Source: Ophelia neglecta (Eukaryota). Taken from it: a stretch of DNA of 64,000 bases. The notes under the pieces are model-generated. The model did no database searches and was not told the DNA's origin. It saw nothing but the letters and a program-made list of their open reading frames with translations. Below, one piece after another: positions 36,573 to 48,358 of the stretch (positions are counted from its first letter, which is position 1; each line of letters begins with the position of its first letter). The stretch covers positions 52,266,001-52,330,000 of the forward strand of contig OZ260665.1 in NCBI GenBank assembly GCA_965285935.1. The letters are read 5' to 3'. Both the position numbers and the translations under genes were made by a program.

Positions 36573-37571
36573 TGTTTATTTGCAGAAAGGGGGCTATATC
36601 AAAGAACACTATCGTGTGCGATTCAGGTTTCCTCTCCCTCTTTACAAAGGGACTATCTGATAAACCTAGCTGTAAAAGTTAGATTGTAATACGTAATATG
36701 ATAGACTCTTGCAAGGTTTATTCCAATCTTTTTTAAAAAAACAAAACAAACTTGTATACATGTAATTTTTTTCTCATATCTTCTTTGCACATTCTTTATT
36801 AGTTATATGAATTATATATATTGTGCCTGTGTGTCAAAATAAGTTTTGTTTCAAGTTTTGATTAGCTGGATCAAGCATCTTAAATCAACCATAAAACATA
36901 TGGTGGTGCAGCATGGCTGGCACAATAGGCTGGATTCTTTTGTTACAATGTCATATGATATGATATTATATGCATAAAGAAGACCAAAGCCATTACTACT
37001 ACTGTTCATGTACAAGTAGAACAGCCAGCCTTTTGTACCAGATCAAATGTATGTGTTCCCAGTACCTATTATTTAAATGTGGACAAGTATCACTACCAGT
37101 ACAAGTCGACATATTGATTGTATATTTTTAGTTTTTTTAAGGCAGGTCCATTAGAGTCCCATGTAATTAAATCACCAATTGTCCTAAAACAGAATGTTAG
37201 TTAAGTTTGGTGTTGAATTAGGCGTCGTAAAGTGGAATTAAGAGCAAAATATTCCTTTACTACATGTAGTACATATTTTGGGGCATTCATTTTTAGCAAC
37301 AGACGTTCCGGTAGTCTTTTGGGTGTATTTTTGTCTAGAATAAAGGTGGTGGATGTTTTGTCTATGCAAGGAGCTTCATTAAATTAAGGAAGCTAGGAAC
37401 AAAAAAATCAGGATTTTATTGGAACAATTTTATACATATATGTAAATTATGTTCAGTTTGATTCTTAATAAACAAGGGCCTGTTTTTCCACCTTTAATAG
37501 TAAGACTAAATATTGTCATCATACTAAATGTAAACACAGACATTAATAACTAGTGCGTTTGTTATCTGCAG

Positions 37572-37723
37572 TGACGCTGCGTGATCCTGATGACGAGACA
37601 GTTTTAATTGAAGGTGTGTTGTTCCGAGCACGTTACCTGGGGTCCACCCAGTTGATCTCGGAGGGCAATCCATCAAAAGCCATGAGGATGATGCAGGCTC
37701 AGGAGGCTGTCGGCAGAATCAAG
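37572..37723 (+). CDS. lin-10: lin-10/APBA PTB domain exon 1 ((V)[50 protein letters not shown])
   Basis: Recognisable Mint/X11 PTB N-terminus ([19 protein letters not shown]). Acceptor ttatctgcAG, donor AAG|GTcaga, phase 1-0. Confidence 0.96.
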
Positions 37724-40664
37724 GTCAGAGCCCACCTCCTCTCTACTCTATCTAAATATCCTCCACAGGCCTACAACATACATCTCCAACTCCCAATACT
37801 CGTACATCATACATGTCTTGTGTCCTCTCGCAGTCTGTCAATGTCAGCCTCAGTGTCAACCCTCATAAACACACAACAGGATCCTGCACCAGGCACATCT
37901 ATATTAGCTTCTAGAAACGACTAGCCTTCCTCAGAGAGTAGTAACTCTCTAATATGACAAAGTAACCAAAGAGGCACGGTAATTGTAAAAGATTTGCTAT
38001 TTGAAACTCTTGAGAGTAATGTGATAATTTCATCCATCAAACTTATCCCTAACAATTTACAGCTTCTCAGTTTCAATAGTAATACAATACTGCTATACCA
38101 GTTCCTCTAAATTTGGAGACTTCAGAATAAAATAGATCTATTCAGTGGATGATATAATGAGTGGAGGCCACACCACAGAGCCATGTCACATTTTTGGTAG
38201 CCAATCAGACAGTGGACACAAAAAGGAAAGTGTCAACTGTCTTTGGATTACTGATTTCATGGCTTATTCTTTCTGTCAAAGTCTTTGGAATTAAATGATC
38301 TATTCTAACAGAACTAAATGGTCTAATGCATACCTACTGTACATGTAATTGGTGTACAGTTATGCAGTTGTATGTATCACTTATACTTTAAATAAAGGAT
38401 CGCATGTTAATGTATTTCATTTTGCACGAATTTGCTATAAATGTAAATTTAGATTTAATTTGATATTTGATGTGGTCAATTCTCATTTCTATTTTGTGTC
38501 ACATTATAGTAGATTTTTCTTCATAACCAAGAGGGCAGTAGACATTGTAATAATGAACTTATCACACTTCGTTAACTATAATTATAATTTGATGTACATA
38601 TGTGAGCATCCAACACTTAATTGTCTGACCCAAAAATTCTTTTTATCAACAGAGGCAACATTTTTGTTCACCCAAATTGTTTGTAAAGATACATGTACCT
38701 GCACTGGACAACTGTCTATATTTTTTCTTAATGTGTTAAACATCCAACATTTATTTTGCTAAGCTTTATCAAACACTGGTAACATCATACTTGGGGTTTC
38801 TCTCCTGATGCCCTTGAATGGCATCCATTGCTGTCACAATCTCATTGCTTCTGTGTCCGGCACATTTCATGCTCTCATGAGACAAACTGCTTGTTGTAAG
38901 GCTACCCAAGTTTACATTAGAATAATGGTGGCCAGTCCATGGCGTGTCAGCTAGTGTTTCTGACCTTACCTCATTATCTGAAGCCAGAACATTTCATAGT
39001 AGTATTGACCTATCAATGTCCTCACCCAGATGCAAAGTAACTTTCATTTAAATAATCAACTGACAGTCCCTAGACTTCTGATTTTTTTTTCTTGTGTATC
39101 AATAGTTATATTCAAGTGTGGTGCTATGACACTGTATATAAAGATAGATAGTTTATACAAAATAAAGGACTACATGTATACCTTTGTCCTGTGCCCTGAA
39201 ACAACTCATTTCTCTTCCCAGTCTAAATACACACATAAAAGTGTCTGCAACTGGTTGTGCTGTACAGTGTACACATCCTATGGTTAAAAAAAAGATGATT
39301 GAAATAGAAATATTCTTTAGCCTGTTTCCTTGACTGTCAATGGTACTTTAGCCATACAAGCCAATGATAATTAACCAGTATATATCATAGGCTGATTTTT
39401 TTTTTAATATCTCCGTTTATGGTGAAGTTTAATAGTCAGTCCTTACACGACAGACCAATGTACTAGTACATGTCTTATTAAGTCGGCTCCCCATTTCTTT
39501 CCATCTGTTGTTTTATTCTCCATCAATCAACAGACCTTGCCCAGCTATTGGTTGCATGCTTAGTAGATTTACCTGTGAATCCCCTTGTTTTGTGATAGCA
39601 AACATGTTCAGCGTGAAAGCAAATGAGAAAAAACAATGAAACAATTGCCAGTTATTTATTCAAAACCATCTGAATCTTCGGTCATAAAATATTTTGTTTT
39701 CGGTTTGAATAGAGTTTCACTTATGAAAATTTTATAACTTTAAGGCTATAGTTTGTTAGAAATTAGGATTGCTTCAAGCAAAAAGGAAAAAAAAACCTAG
39801 GGGAGTGGGGACAGGGGGGAAAACACAGACACACAAAAAGCATGAGTATTAAATATAAAAAAATAGATCACAAACACAGCTTACATGTGATATAATTTCT
39901 GATAAGCTTCAACATCAGGGCAATTAGTGAATATATTAGAATATATTTTGGCAAACAGTGCTCATACTTAACCATTCAATTTGTGTATATCCAAAGAACA
40001 ATTTAACCCAAAGCTAGGCATGCAGGGATACAGTGATTATAAACATATAATTTTATATGTTGAGGACACCTTAGAAACATTATTCTCCAAAATCAATAAG
40101 AATCTACTAGAAATCTAATAAGCTATCCAAAACTATAAGATTGATGTCTCCAGGATAAAAGGATCAGGTATTAATGCCATATGCTGCTTATCAGTAGATG
40201 TTTGTTCGAGCTCCTCGTTGAAGCATGAATTTTTTTTATTAGAGTAAAGCCTGCTTGACTGTTAGTTTTAAATGCAGATGTTATCATCAACTCAATATCA
40301 GCCAGTATTTTATTAGAGGTACACTTTAAGACAGTTTGTGACTGAGTTTGCATGTTTCAGTAATGCTTTTTACCAGTTATTCCACCCCCAGCATGACCAG
40401 AAGTTACCATGTGGTGCGTTTTGTCAGATCTTTGGCATGGACTAAATATTATAATCATTAACTTGTACTTACAAAATGACTAAATGTATGAAATAATAGA
40501 CACTTGATGTGTTATGTTAGCAGATAATGATGTATAACCAATTAATTGTGACTCATTTTATTTTCTGATCATGTCACAAAAGTACTAAATTGATGCCTTT
40601 TCAACAGATTGTTTTTCTAAATCTAACTTTTTTCCTTGACTTGTCCTCCAATTATGTGATTCAG

Positions 40665-40670
40665 GCCTCG
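40665..40670 (+). CDS. lin-10: Candidate 6-nt microexon (Ala-Ser) inside the PTB domain
   Basis: CTAAC branch-like motif (40623), pyrimidine tract, then ttcAG|GCCTCG|GTAAGT. Frame-preserving in a phase-0 intron. Confidence 0.62.
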
Positions 40671-41744
40671 GTAAGTCCACCAGACTAGCATAAAAATCAG
40701 CCATACCAAAACATCAATTTGCTTTCCCCTGTGTTATCCATTTCTGTTTGATTTCCTGTCCACAATGATGTGTTTTCCCCTGCGTATACCTTACAACACA
40801 CTACACAGCCTCCATTTCATCTCAAAGGTGCACTGTTTACTAGAATAGCTCCCAAATAATGTTATACTCTAGAGGTAAATGTATGCTACCATATTTTCAT
40901 ATGAAATAAAAAGTATGCATGTATATCAAGCTCATTCTACATGTACATGTGTGTTCTGTATGCTAGAATATGCTTCTACATGTACTCGCAGTGTATATAT
41001 TAATTTTGCATGCTGATAACAATATTTGATTGTTAGTTGCGTTCCCACAAGGTTTCTTTGCCATGATAAGAGTTTGTTTATATGGCTTCTAATTTCAGAG
41101 GGAAATATGAGGTGTCTGAGATTGCTTCATCTCAGGTACAGCAGCAGAAACAGTTCAATATCAGCTCAATCACACCCCTGACATTCATAAACACAACTCA
41201 CCCGCTCTTTGTTTATAAGGTTGCTAGATGATGTGTAAGAAATGTGGCCCAAAATTATTCCGAGTCACTTTCTTACAGTAAAACAAATACCAAGAGTTCT
41301 GCTGGGACCCATAGAACTGGTATATACAGCATAAAACTGGGACTTAATTTGTTGATGGGGTGTATTATGATCATTGGATGTTCTTCTATCACACGAAGCA
41401 TATGCATTTGTGTAATTGTGAGAAGAAAAGCCGAGCCGAGCTGTTGTTTTGGTATTAGAGATATATCAAAGCAGCATTTTGCCTACTCTGACAGATGCAT
41501 ATTGGACAGGATTATATAGAATTGGTGTCATTTGTCCCAGCTGATTACAGATTCATCATAAACACCACGCTGTGGGAATACTTTATTATTTCGCTCATCA
41601 TTGTTAGCTTTGATTAATGATTACAAAGCTGTCCCTGAGGAACAGCGGGATCGGAAGGGCCGAGGATCTCGACAGAAGACCTCTTCCTGTCATCATGGAC
41701 CAGTAATGATGTATCTGGGAAATAGAGACATCCATCATAGCGTA

Positions 41745-42055
41745 CTTATAGAGGAATCATGGCTTATTTACTGGGGGAAATGTAGATTATTTTGGGGGAA
41801 TTGTAGGTTATTTACTGGGGGAATCATAAGTCGTATACTCGAGGCTTCATCGGCTATCACTTGGGGAATATATAGATTATTTCTAGTGGAATTGTTGGTT
41901 ATTTGTTGGGGGAATTATAGGTTATTTCTAGAAGGAATCATAGGTTATTTTGTAAAGGAATCCTTTCGTTTTTACTAAGGAATAATAGGTTATATTTTTT
42001 GCATAATCCAAGGTTATTTCTTATGTTATTACTTGGGGGAATCCTATGTTGTTTT
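41745..42055. repeat. Degenerate tandem repeat, about 23-bp unit
   Basis: Recurring taggttattt(act)gggggaat(c/t)a motif; accounts for the repetitive part of ORF 41601-41978. Confidence 0.75.
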
Positions 42056-43340
42056 CTGCAGAAATTGAAGTTTAACATTTTCCTGGGAAATCTTGGAGAG
42101 GAGGGAGGGGGGTATGTGGGGATTTTATTTACTGTGTTGAATGGGGTACCATTTACTGTTGGAAATGTGATTCCTAAAATGAATCAGTGGCCATTAGTTA
42201 TTTTCAATTGATGAAATATTAATGTCAGCATATATTTTGGAATTGTTTTTTTATCAGAATTAATAATCGATAAACATTCTTTATCCCTGAGCCATTGAAA
42301 GCTAGTTGCTTCTGAACGTCCAGGGTGTTAACATGTGTAATAGCAATGTTTGCTGGAAAAATGGGTCATAAGGAAGGTTCATCATTTTTATGGCTAAGCT
42401 GTAACAAGTAAGCACATCCTCTGAGGAGTAGATGCTGAAACAAAGGCTAGTGTGGCTATAAATTCTAGAGTACATTATAAGACTTTCGTCTGACTTTAAC
42501 ACCTACAGTACATGTGTAATGGCTGTTCTGCTTAGAATAATACCGCTCTTGGTTTATAAGAGAATTGAAACATTGGCTAGCAAAGTACAATCTGTTGTCA
42601 GCAATATTGTGCCTGTTATTGGCACCTGCAGTGGTAATTATATCCTGGAAAATGATAAACTGCTTTTGTTTGACTTTAGGAGGAGAGTAACGAGGCAGCT
42701 AGACAAGCAATTAAGGCAAAAAACAAAATGAAAATTGCCAAAGTTTGCTGATGTTCAAAGATAACTAGTCTTTGAATGAGAGGGCTTGGTATTGCTTCCT
42801 GCAGAGCACTCAGTGTGTGTGTTTGGACAAAAAGTTGTATCCTCCATTTGAAGAATATTAGCCTTCCGAATGCGATTGCCACCATCATGTTATAAAGCTT
42901 AATGGAGCTTTCTATTTTGACAATGTTACTGTTGTCTCTCTTCCTGATACTGGCAAACCTTTGAGCAAGTAATCTGCACCAGTCAGAATATTTGTTACAC
43001 TAATGATTAATAAAGATTTAATATCTGTGGCCAACTGCTTCCGCATCACATGCTCAAGATCAAGATACTACTTCAGATCTACATGCTATAACTTTGTCAT
43101 CCACTCTTGTAATGAAATTGAAAGGCTTCATTGTAGTACTACTGCTTCCTGTGTTATATACTTCTGTCATACGAGAGTCTTGTGATAAAGAAGCCTTTGT
43201 TCAGATACTACTTTTTCAGACGTCCCTCACTTTCAAAACATCCTGCTGTTATCATCAGTTGGTCTTCCTACACACAGGCCACAGCTTGGATGTTATTTTA
43301 CAAGATGAAGGCGGAAAAAGAAAAGTGTACAAAACTCCTG

Positions 43341-43503
43341 TGGAAATCATTTGATTAGAGACATATATATATATACATGTATATTTGAACTATTACTATG
43401 TCTGAATAACAAGTCAGGCCTGGGGGTAGAAATCATTTGATTAAAAAATAGACGTGTACCTGTATTTTTGAGCTATTAATTTGTCTCAATAACAAGTCAA
43501 GGC
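43341..43503. repeat. Diverged direct duplication, 2 copies of about 80-87 bp
   Basis: gaaatcatttgatta...tttga(a/g)ctatta...tgtct(g/c)aataacaagtca occurs twice in tandem. Confidence 0.7.
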
Positions 43504-45948
43504 TATGACATTATGGAGCGTATTCACCTGCCGACAATAAGATTTATGTCATTCCTCATCAGCCAAGTCATCTGTCTTAGATTTTCCCCTTGCTGTTATT
43601 CTTCGGCACGCGATCTTTTCATCTAGAGAAGATTATTCTCCAACTCCATTTGGTGCCAGCCATTGCTATTGATTGCTGTAGGTTTGGGGTCTTGTGTAAC
43701 TTAGCCCCATCAGGTGGTATAGTGGTTTTGAGACTGGCCCCACATTTTAATGACACCAATAGCAGAAAGCATTCACTGTATTGATTGTATAATGTGATTG
43801 TGCTGTACAATTAGTGCAATTTTTCCTACCAACCTCTGATAAGCCCTTAAATCAATTTGATGGATGTTTAACAGGCAATTCTGATTGCAGTCCTATGTAT
43901 GCTTGTCTGCTCGGAAACTTACGATGAGACATGCCAGTACAGGCTTTACCCACCGGTAGATGCCATGGATGCCTCACAAATAGCATCACGCATGGGGTGC
44001 TCTCAGTGATGTTGTAAAGAAAAGACATCATAAATCAGATAAATCCTCTGTTTCTACATTGTCTAGAGCCATGCACAAGTCGAGTGCTGTCGTAGGATCC
44101 AAATTTACAGTCATCGGAGCTTTAATGATATTGGCCTTTGTCAAATGACCATGAATATGGCTCACCCTATCAGCCAAGCTTAGAATTTCAGTCTTTCAGC
44201 CGCTATGCATAAGGTTGTAAAAATGGTGAAGACTTTTTGTCCTCTACTCTCTGGTTGTGCTTTAATACGAGAACATGACAATATAACTGATGGAGTCAGT
44301 GTTGCATGTCACCCAAGTTGTCATGTGCATGATTATAGTAGCATGATGAAAAATAGTTAATTCAAATACTGAGATATGTTTTACTGCATTCATGAAAGTC
44401 AATTGAAAGACAGAAAAATGTCAGGACCCTTCCAGCGTTGATATATTGTGATCCCCGTGCAGAATATACAATGCGTCTCTGGGTTATGTAGCTGTCGGGT
44501 TTGCTTATCCCAGGCTTTCTTATGAATGCAGCTCATAAAATTGTCCTGTTGGCCTTGCCCAGCATTGTGGCATTACTTAATGCTCTCCATCTTGTCACTT
44601 TATATATTATACAACAGATAAATACTTCCATTCCTATGCATGTCTTGATGTAAATATCTCTGCGGCTTCTTGTTTAGTCTTTCCTAATGCATGTCATTTA
44701 ATGATGTAGGATTTTCTGAAAGTGCATCTTTGACAATTTCAGTGTCTTTCTCAATCTCCAAGTGTCAAGATTAAATGTGTATCTTCCTTCTTTGCATTGA
44801 GATTTATGCCATATAGTTTACATACCCTTACATGTATAGAAGTATAGAAGTTAAGAAAATATGAAAGACATTCATGAAGAGACTAGCTGTTTTAAGACAT
44901 ATTAGTACTAAATGTATGGATGTAGTAGACATTAAAGCTATTTATCATTTGAATAACAGTAGTGCTCATAATGTAAAAAGCATGATATGCAGGTGGTTTT
45001 CACTTGAAAGAGGCAGTCAATAGAACCAAATTGCTTGATCTGGCTTGTTATGATTCATTACACAGTTATATATCAATAATGCTCAATGGTGCGTCTCTTC
45101 CTTCGTTACTGTCAATGTGTTGGTACTGTGAGTTGTTGATATTGTTTTCACTTCCTTTTTAAACAGACCTTGGGAAAATTACACTTTGGCAAAAAATTTC
45201 AGGTATTGGCAGATGATTGTGTTGTAGCTTGTATGTAATCCCCAATGTTATTTAATAGAAAATAAAGTGCATTTAATATCTAATGTATTCATTTTTATAG
45301 CTGCCATGCACATTTATCAGGCTTAGTTAAGTGCACATGCATTCATAGTATTTTAATATTCGGTGATTATTAGGCTGCTAGTTACATACTTGTACATCAG
45401 TGTATTTTTTATTTAATTTTCATCCAAAAATTGTATTGTCATCAGTTGATAATGATTATGTAACCCTTCCATGTTTGGCCAGTTATTGATTGTATCCAGA
45501 TAAAAGAACAGGATGCTTACATATGTACATATTCAGTATCAGTTGTATTAACAAAATAAAATAATTGACCTTGAATTAATGACACAAACACATGAGCATA
45601 CATGTATTTTAGTTTTTACATGGCAAATGATTTGCTGCAGTGCATGCTTGTTGTTATGTTTTGTAATTGTTTGTTACTTTCTTGCAGCTGGTAGCCTATA
45701 CATTGTACACTCCTTGGTGCTATACTCTCCACTCTCACACCATCAGTTTACTTGCTGCTTTCTTTTACTTGAAACATATTGCTTTGCTATCTTCAACATT
45801 AACAACTACATTGAATTTCATAGATACTTATTTTTAGCGGCACTTTACATTTTAATTTAAACCCTGCTACAAACACAAGACTTACTTGGTAAATGTGTAC
45901 TGTGATGATTTGAAGAAATGAAAACACAAATATACTTATGTGTTGCAG

Positions 45949-46035
45949 GCTCCTGAAGGCGAGAGTCAGCCAAGCACAGAAGTCGATTTGTTTGTCTCTG
46001 TGGAGAAAATAATGATACTTAACACTGATCTCCAG
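45949..46035 (+). CDS. lin-10: lin-10/APBA PTB exon 2 (APEGESQPSTEVDLFVSVEKIMILNTDLQ)
   Basis: Closely matches the Mint/X11 APEGESQP.TEVDLF segment. Acceptor tgttgcAG, donor CAG|GTGAGg, 87 nt, phase 0-0. Not in the ORF track. Confidence 0.96.
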
Positions 46036-46248
46036 GTGAGGCTTTTTGATTTGTGTTCACAACAGGTTATCCAATAAAACTTTTCAGTAATAAGACTTCT
46101 TGAAGCTCTTTCAATTATTCAGCCAGCAATAGTATTTATGTGTTTTGGAGAAAAAAAAATCTTAAAAACTTAATAATATTAATCAAATTTCTCAACAGAT
46201 ATGAGTTTAAAGAATTGCTTTGATTTTTGTACATTAATATATCTGTAG

Positions 46249-46410
46249 GAGATCATGATGGACCATGCTTTGCGTACCATCTCGTACATAGCAGACATCG
46301 GAGACATTTTAGTGATCATGGCCAGACGCGGTCCTGTGACCAGCCCCACAGCAGACGGCAGAGTCAGAAAACAGTCGAAAATCTGCTGCCACGTCTTTGA
46401 ATCCGAAGAG
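46249..46410 (+). CDS. lin-10: lin-10/APBA PTB exon 3 (EIMMDHALRTISYIADIGDILVIMARRGPVTSPTADGRVRKQSKICCHVFESEE)
   Basis: Mint PTB signatures MMDH.LRTISYIADIG and CHVFES. Acceptor atctgtAG, donor GAG|GTAAGT, 162 nt, phase 0-0. Confidence 0.97.
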
Positions 46411-47689
46411 GTAAGTTTTTGCACTATTCCCAGAAAACAGGCATATAGTTTATTATACAATTGCAAAAAGGCAATCATTTTATTGCAGAAAGTCTTTGGT
46501 AGACAGGTAAATTAAAGTGGAAACGACAAACATTTCATAAATGTCTGTCCTAAAGAAAACTTGGGTTATAATGTAATTTGAAGTGTCTATCATTGCATCA
46601 GACGTCACTGTGTGTTTAGAGCCCCTGATATAACAGCAGATTGTTTCATGTTTGATTGTTGGAAGCATTTACCATCCTGCTGTATATACATCAATGTTAC
46701 CCATATCCTTGAGAAGAAAGTCATATAACAAGAGCTCCACTGGCAGAACTCAACCATATTGCATGGTAGGACATTTATATGGGAGATGGTATTTCTTTTT
46801 AAAGGTGCCTTGCTTTGCAGTTTCAATTTGATTTTGATTGTCTTTGGCATTCCCTGCAGAAATCTCAGTTATGTGAAATTGCTCTGGCCTTGACAGAAAT
46901 GAGAAACCACATAGCTGGGCTTAAGAAGCTGTTTTTTTTTTTATCAGAAAACTGCCAAACATCCTGCAATGAATTGAACACTGCATGGTATAAGATTTAT
47001 AATGAATTGTCAAGATAAGTCACCTGATCTCCTTGTTGAAGTCTTTGTTTGATGAATGCTGGTAATTCAGGTAGTTTTATTGTTTATACCTGGGTTGATG
47101 CTGTGTGAGTATTATCAGTCTGGCTCCACTCCAGACCCACACGGCTGGTGGGTAAGGTGACCTTTGATTGGGGCTGGACATGGAAGGTTCATGCGCACGG
47201 ACCTACAGCTGTCACTAGCAATCCTGCTCACAATTTGTCTTTTGTGAAAGCACAAGTCTGCAGTGGGCAGGCCTTAATATTCAATCTGTGTTTTTTTTCC
47301 CTGGATGAGTAAACAAGCAATCCCATTCGGCATTATTAAAGTTTCATGCTGCAGTAATTGTGTGCCTCTTTGGGAACTGCTGATGTGTGTAGGGTGTGCT
47401 GCGGTTATTAAGATATTTTCGTTCATGTACTAGATGTAATGTACAAAGTCTCATGTTTTAATATTAAAGTAGTCTCGCTCTACAATCCCCAAGCTATGGT
47501 AATCATATACTGCTATTCACCTTGCCGGTCAGTATATGAAGGTTGTTAAATATAAGTGGGGGCTGTTGGAGTCTCTGACTTAATATTGAAGGCAGTAGAG
47601 TACTTCAATGTTTGCAAGAGCGACATATACAAGTGGAGCTAGTCCAACAATTGTGTAAGCATTGTTTCCTTGAGCAGGAAACCATAGGC

Positions 47690-48358
47690 CTTGGTTAGAG
47701 CTGAGGATAGAGCCAGAGAGGTGGCTAAAGCCATACCCATGGCTAGAGCCAAAGCTGTGTCTAGAGCCAGAGCCATTGCTACAGCCAGAGCCGTTGCTAG
47801 AGCCAGAGCCATGGCTAGAGCCAGAGCTGAGGCTAGACCCATTTCCTTGGCTAGAGCCAGAGCCATGGCTAGGGCTCGAACAAAAGCTGTGGTTAGAGTC
47901 TTGGCTAGAGTCATGGTTTGAGCCAGAGCTGTAACTGGAGCCAGAGCCATGGCTAAAGCCATTCCCATGGCTAGAGCTAGAGCTGTGGCTAGAGCCAGTG
48001 TCTTGGCTAGAGTCATGGTTTGAGCCAGAGCTGTGGCTGGAGCCAGTGCCATGGCTAAAGCCATTCCCATGGCTAGAGCTAGAGCTGTGGCTAGAGCCAG
48101 TGTCTTGGCTAGAGTCATGGTTTGAGCCAGAGCTGTGGCTGGAGCCAGAGCCATGGCTAAAGCCATACCCATGGCTAGAGCTAGAGCCAGAACCATTGCT
48201 AGAGCCAGAGCCATGGCTAGAGCCAGAGCTTTGACTAGGGCCAGAATCGTGGCCAGAGCCAGACCCGGGCCTAGAACCGTGGCTAGTGCTGTGGCTAAAG
48301 CCAGAGCCTTGGCGAGAGCCATTGCTGCAGCCAGAACTGGGGCTATAGAGCCAGAGCC
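47690..48358. repeat. Hexamer-derived (AGAGCC/AGAGCT/GTGGCT) array with a 102-bp higher-order repeat
   Basis: tcttggctagagtcatggtttgagccagagctg at 47899, 48001 and 48103; produces the Ala-Leu and Ala-Arg low-complexity ORFs on both strands. Confidence 0.93.

Follow-up and report, generated by a model that had tools for sequence, protein, structure and literature searches.

The window analysed here is a stretch of 64,000 nucleotides (nt) of Ophelia neglecta (GCA_965285935.1, contig OZ260665.1, positions 52,266,001 to 52,330,000 of the forward strand), and coordinates given without a contig refer to it. It contains part of a Mint/X11 gene (APBA, LIN-10). A cassette of 6 nt, in phase 0 and without a stop codon, is located at 40665..40670 on the + strand in an intron of the PTB coding region, and encodes Ala-Ser. 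This cassette is almost certainly used as an exon in the species. On balance, its best explanation is a conserved and likely neural cassette, probably of common origin with an arthropod exon and predicted to weaken Rab6 docking.

Gene, host intron and cassettes in the window

The upstream PTB coding exon (37572..37723, +) ends in GRIK before a GTCAGA donor. It shows 80-90% tblastn identity to lophotrochozoan Mint, matches the PTB domains of Mint1 and Mint2 in the PDB, and has one match across its own genome. The downstream coding exon, recognised from the sequence and by tblastn, starts with APEG (45949..46035, +), and the next PTB exon was found by tblastn at 46249..46410 (+). The window ends before the remaining exons of the PTB and PDZ domains, which follow some 25 kb downstream (G000:C8:52337484-52338913). 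Judged from this orthologous sequence, with a PTB followed by two PDZ domains, the host gene is Mint/X11. The encoded protein is 83-90% identical to annelid, mollusc, nemertean and brachiopod Mint, and in a tree of 26 proteins it groups with that of the leech Helobdella (94/90, not starred).

The exons ending in GRIK and starting with APEG are separated by a phase-0 GT..AG intron of 8,225 nt (37724-45948), in which the microexon has flanking introns of 2.9 and 4.5 kb. A candidate branch point, CTAAC (40623..40627, +), lies 42 nt 5' of the microexon, within an AG-free zone of 55 nt that extends from the preceding AG (40606-40607) to the next one (40663-40664). The latter closes a pyrimidine-rich tract (40628..40664, +), the last 30 nt of which hold no TGC, and serves as acceptor. 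The donor is the consensus GTAAGT (40671..40676, +), and GTRAGT was found in all 10 aligned cassettes. Two TGCATG elements, possible Rbfox sites that are weakly above background, follow at 40916..40921 and 41007..41012 (+). The branch point, the AG-free zone, the AG-GCCTCG-GTAAGT cassette, the phase-0 GRIK/APEG intron and both TGCATG elements had been described in an initial annotation of the sequence, and all were found where it had placed them.

That annotation gave the microexon only and overlooked a second conserved cassette in the same intron. This phase-0 exon of 36 nt (45167..45202, +) has AG..GT flanks and encodes 12 residues of the type TLG-x-LHFG-x-x-F/Y-Q. Its peptide is identical to the octopus module at 9 of 14 aligned residues. 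Homologous 12-residue modules exist in seven variants among mollusc and nemertean isoforms, and a looser similar stretch was seen in the bryozoan-like locus L004. Four TGCATG elements lie within 1 kb upstream of the exon. With two such cassettes, the intron represents a small cassette cluster. Other AG..GT candidates in the intron, such as 42680-42742, were rejected because their donors are weak and no module of homologs matches them. The segment 42680-42742 (+; 63 nt, basic peptide, poor donor) does stand at the place of a lineage-specific middle exon of molluscs, as an unverified candidate.

The window holds four copies of the YAG-N6-GTRAGT motif where 2.24 would be expected, and a count of 4 was reached in 21 of 100 shuffles. 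The bare motif is thus within chance and by itself no proof. When an AG-free zone of at least 40 nt is required, the + strand of the window retains the microexon as its sole site and the - strand has none. Introns from 1,000 simulations contained 0.032 sites with this zone each, and 0.002 Ala-Ser-coding cassettes each. As far as sequence can tell, the microexon is supported by conservation and not by the bare motif.

The RIK/APEG junction in other animals

The initial annotation proposed that the Mint PTB domain carries a possibly ancient microexon at its variable point; this is supported by mollusc isoforms, by genomic cassettes of relatives and by an arthropod counterpart. Alignment of invertebrate isoforms at RIK/APEG, a check that it had suggested, revealed Ala-Ser in molluscs and Ala-Leu in arthropods. 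Among lophotrochozoans, 10 of 34 species rows have isoforms with an insert that begins with Ala-Ser after RIK; these are gastropods, bivalves and one cephalopod (two Haliotis, Biomphalaria glabrata, Lymnaea, Crassostrea virginica, Magallana, Mizuhopecten, Pecten, Ylistrum and Octopus sinensis). Four pairs of mollusc isoforms are identical except for Ala-Ser, and thus both included and skipped forms exist in orthologs. In 36 of the 41 Ala-Ser-bearing mollusc isoform records (record counts, not abundances), the 12-residue module follows Ala-Ser, and Ala-Ser stands alone in two, from Octopus sinensis and Pecten maximus.

Mollusc Mint annotation (Pecten maximus XP_033749356.1, Octopus sinensis XP_036359905.1, Lymnaea stagnalis Q869G0) agrees with the window in the two residues, the junction and the optional use, with the 12-residue module following in many isoforms. 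These mollusc records are annotation only, however, and the window comes from another group, its protein grouping with that of the leech. A junction-centred search with the Ala-Ser form was not enriched for two-residue inserts: none of 34 new proteins had Ala-Ser alone, and all 20 vertebrate-type or distant matches in this set, which is biased by the query wording, were without insert.

Genomic evidence was drawn from 60 loci on metagenome contigs, 17 of which have both flanking exons and were scanned for cassettes (the duplicate L046 was omitted). A 6-nt cassette with a GTRAGT donor was found in 7 of these 17 whole introns, coding for Ala-Ser (L004), Ser-Ser (L025), Thr-Leu (L024), Ser-Leu (L037) and Ala-Leu (L056, L057, L060). 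Partial introns with a cassette are those of L003, L023, L055 and L059, the last two having the same sequence as L056; L010 has a 9-nt variant, and L034 is a spliced contig with Ala-Leu included. The AG-6nt-GTAAGT cassette, for which inspection of the orthologous intron in relatives had been advised, is thus present in related loci. Alignment of ten cassettes showed no variation in the AG, in base 2, which is C, or in the GT-AGT bases of the donor; nine of them have T as base 4. The window exon differs by one base from that of the arthropod-type L060, and the AG-free zone measures 44-129 nt at 11 of 11 microexon sites.

Two of these loci resemble known species. L003 fully matches an exon of Mya arenaria (bivalve-like) and L004 is 90% identical to an exon of Watersipora (bryozoan-like); both hold an AG-6nt-GTAAGT cassette that codes for Ala-Ser. 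None of the two isoforms seen per species for Mya arenaria and Watersipora contains Ala-Ser, which suggests that annotation can miss the microexon. The expectation that gene finders would miss it is borne out for these isoforms; in some other species, RNA-supported annotations do catch it.

Among divergent lophotrochozoan-type Mint sets, possibly paralogs, L023 and L025 have a Ser-Ser 6-nt cassette, and none was found in L012, L016, L017, L019, L022, L040 and L045. L005, L006 and L009 are Mint loci that read straight through an RIK/APQG junction; in the 62-kb contig L009 this suggests loss of the host intron.

The initial annotation's statement that some insect X11 isoforms differ by two residues at the junction proved right, the residues being Ala-Leu. 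A search targeted at Ala-Leu, and hence enriched by design, yielded 118 new proteins: 94 with Ala-Leu alone, 3 with Ala-Leu and a variant downstream start, 1 with Ser-Leu, 12 with a long insert ending in Ala-Leu, and 8 unparsed. Included and skipped forms were both found in 6 of 7 Drosophila species groups, in Penaeus and, with Ser-Leu, in Tetranychus. Among 139 new cluster representatives, 101 junctions could be parsed (38 could not); 75 have no insert, 2 have two residues (both Ala-Leu, arthropod-type) and 24 have other lengths. Long inserts before Ala-Leu occur in moths, butterflies, beetles, a bug and a grasshopper (P0289, P0296, P0313, P0321, P0323, P0325, P0330, P0331, P0342, P0347, P0350, P0369). 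The long insert resembles the upstream PTB exon as a diverged duplicate would, and is perhaps an alternative PTB strand-helix module.

A 6-nt exon of Drosophila X11L, DmeEX0007022, is listed as eMIC-dependent and pan-neuronal in table S2 of PMC8797185. It is most likely the arthropod Ala-Leu exon, since no two-residue indel other than that at RIK/APEG separates the Drosophila X11L isoforms compared; the match is indirect, from length and isoform indel and not from exon bases. Two indels among these isoforms also fit the published pattern of exons 7 and 8, as bioRxiv 10.1101/2023.03.23.533999 describes that exon 8 of X11L is skipped following an exon 7 for which two acceptors exist. DmeEX0007022 (tables S2 and S3 of PMC8797185) shares the gene family, the length of 6 nt and the long AG-free zone with the window exon. 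It differs in coding for Ala-Leu instead of Ala-Ser and in its introns: by the listed coordinates these measure about 140 and 90 nt, whereas those beside the window exon reach 2.9 and 4.5 kb.

The arthropod Ala-Leu exon has the same intron, phase and length as the Ala-Ser exon of the window, and a related sequence, as expected of orthologs. The two probably share a common origin. This reading is the simpler one because each form spans its whole clade and a single base may separate them.

Outside protostomes, no two-residue insert was seen among the sequences compared. The junction does accept other inserts. The extra segment of human APBA1 that the initial annotation had placed at RIK/APEG is seen in the PDB chain 1aqc of X11/Mint1, with 11 extra residues, and the Mint2 chain has 12 extra residues at the same place. 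The optional exon 6 of human Mint1/APBA1 (PMC3667844) and the 12-residue insert of Mint2/APBA2 share the IK/APEG junction with the microexon; they are basic, 33-36 nt long and without sequence likeness to the 6-nt exon, and the comparison concerns position, not homology. A 36-nt exon of mouse Apba2 appears as neural in a published listing. In the hemichordate Ptychodera flava (P0501, P0593-P0602), a 9-residue insert begins with Thr and ends with Tyr-Gln, as does the lophotrochozoan 12-residue module.

Regulation and proposed function

The own genome contains one match to SRRM_C, presumably the eMIC domain, above the family cut-off (31.9 bits against 27; L001, G000:C12:35078626-35078754), which is likely the eMIC exon of its Srrm234 gene. 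The features of eMIC targets given in PMC8797185 include a long AG exclusion zone, a strong CUAAY branch point and UGC near the 3' splice site. The 55-nt AG-free zone and CTAAC at -42 agree with them. By analogy with the fly exon, inclusion in this species is quite probably biased to neurons. The initial annotation also pointed to Rbfox-type control; both TGCATG sites are present, but two per 500 nt are not rare here (7 of 127 bins); Rbfox control is only weakly suggested. A search of the own genome for Fox-1_C found no match, which is uninformative, as control genomes also gave none.

Binding of Mint to Rab6 is documented in two animals. According to PMC3667844, GTP-Rab6 binding and Golgi localisation are seen for human Mint1 that lacks exon 6 (IK-APEG) and not for the form that includes it, and APP is bound by both. 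The PTB of C. elegans LIN-10 is reported to bind RAB-6.2-GTP (PMC3255976). These results are why the insert is favoured as weakening Rab6 docking in neurons. In the mechanism that we propose, the 6-nt cassette, which is conserved and lies where a helix of the Mint/X11 PTB hinges into a loop, would be spliced in mainly in neurons, the insert would lengthen the helix and shift the adjoining loop, and Rab6-dependent Golgi docking would be weakened while cargo binding is kept. The microexon probably acts as the opening part of a modular insert and is often combined with the 36-nt exon, so that 0, 2, 12 or 14 residues would be inserted at one point. Structure models of a scallop pair, identical but for a 14-residue insert, are compatible with this mechanism. 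In the skipped form, helix 820-834 leads by an ordered loop into the next strand (pLDDT 87-91); in the included form, the helix reaches 839 and residues 840-855 fall below pLDDT 50. An effect of the insert on Rab6 binding is a tentative proposal, argued from the human and nematode cases, with the 14-residue form the likelier blocker.

A wider hypothesis can be built on these elements. The exon may go back to a neural microexon of the protostome ancestor and have persisted in annelids, molluscs, bryozoans and arthropods. Combined with the vertebrate and hemichordate exons at this junction, which would have arisen separately, it would form a bilaterian-wide switch taking Mint off Rab6 and the Golgi in neurons, for which two residues would be enough. 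As a whole, this hypothesis is rather doubtful.

Alternative explanations and related exons

Various observations weigh against the favoured explanation. Exon use in this species is something that we infer. Twenty-four of the 34 species rows are without an Ala-Ser-first isoform, including the annelids Helobdella and Owenia (one record each) and the nemerteans Lineus and Tubulanus, and no two-residue insert was seen in nematode-type representatives or in the fluke, rotifer and horsehair-worm clusters; among lineages that could bridge the two clades, no intron of a priapulid, onychophoran or tardigrade was recognised. Ten of the 17 whole-intron loci have no cassette (7 related divergent lophotrochozoan-type, 1 arthropod-type and 2 distant, which we take for cnidarian). 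Vertebrate-type representatives carry basic inserts of 10-13 residues at the junction, and of the Ptychodera flava isoforms 4 have no insert, 4 have one of 9 residues and 3 have one of 4 residues. The 30 nt upstream contain no TGC in the window, L003 and L004, whereas TGC is present at 5 of 5 arthropod-type sites, and the long flanking introns are unlike those of fly eMIC targets. The Rab6 effect is known for 11 basic residues, not for two small ones, and PMC3667844 places both human Mint1 forms in the same tissues, brain and testis. Finally, the scallop models were built on differing alignments, where sparse columns alone reduce pLDDT, and cover only the 0- and 14-residue forms; they locate the insert more than they prove an effect.

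That the cassette is a chance motif or an unused relic in this species is very improbable. The frequency of the bare motif would allow it, but the cassette encodes the exact mollusc module, so rare in simulated introns, precedes the conserved 36-nt exon in the right order and has kept consensus splice sites. Independent birth of the Ala-Ser and Ala-Leu exons, in lophotrochozoans and arthropods, within a hotspot intron is more plausible and still unlikely. The varied inserts at this one junction, including unrelated ones in vertebrates and a hemichordate, mean that recurrence is possible, and rapid turnover and frequent recurrence of neural exons are among the findings of published work. Bases 1 and 6 follow splice-site preference, and the flanks cannot be aligned across phyla (47% mean column identity). 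On the other hand, length, phase, intron, the C at base 2 and the T at base 4 are all shared, the window and L060 exons are one base apart, and both Ala-Ser and Ala-Leu must already be very old, each being spread over a whole clade.

Control of the lophotrochozoan exon by Rbfox instead of eMIC, perhaps with use in muscle as well as nerve, appears improbable. TGCATG lies within 400 nt downstream at 4 of 6 lophotrochozoan-type and 0 of 5 arthropod-type sites, though three of the arthropod loci offered less than 400 nt to scan. The host intron contains nine TGCATG (P 0.02-0.06 against Markov simulations), and such motifs are described as enriched downstream of human alternative microexons (PMC4317164). 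Yet the local chance of a TGCATG is 0.07-0.36 per lophotrochozoan locus and the positions are not shared, and although TGC is missing upstream of the exon, the long AG-free zone and CTAAC match the eMIC code. It is less probable than the favoured reading, but a serious alternative, that the exon is real and old while its two residues have no Rab6 effect; they would then act on another partner, on the binding of membranes or on the dynamics of the loop, or only lead into the 14-residue insert. Most Ala-Ser records carry the 12-residue module too, and in human Mint1 it is a long, basic insert that blocks Rab6. Against this, most arthropod records of the targeted search (94 of 118) have nothing but the two-residue insert, and its retention from mites to flies suggests that two residues matter by themselves; Rab6 binding is the only tested function found for the junction.

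Annotations of molluscs and insects already contain the exon as such, which in the fly is most likely catalogued too. In the literature searched, no description was found of the mollusc or annelid exon, of its homology to the fly exon, of protostome ancestry or of a link to a Rab6 switch. The main text of bioRxiv 10.64898/2026.09.05.749416, a preprint that includes octopus and centipede, contains no mention of APBA, X11, Mint or lin-10; its supplementary datasets may list the exon. A microexon of APBB1/2/3 (Fe65), presented in PMC4317164 and in that preprint, offers a parallel: it is also very old, 6 nt long, and adds two residues to the PTB domain of an APP-binding adaptor. It belongs to another gene family, and is there inferred to be ancestral to bilaterians, whereas the Mint exon has been seen in protostomes only. 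If truly common to lophotrochozoans and arthropods, the 6-nt Mint exon would be one of few deep survivors. Moreover, the junction has a tested function in human Mint1, Rab6 binding, and thus a cheap and direct experiment is possible in Drosophila.

Three contig runs from one sample over 37400-46600 behave as DNA, with no joints, and are uninformative on expression. In run X1, none of nine contig differences over 40262-41382 falls inside 40537-40881, a result from one sample at about 1% divergence that was too weak and was not used. A degenerate minisatellite with a unit of 21-23 nt occupies 41753-41962 in the host intron. In the long downstream intron, a tandem array at 47708-48263 has nested periods of 6, 18, 36 and 102 nt, and several of its minus-strand frames are open.

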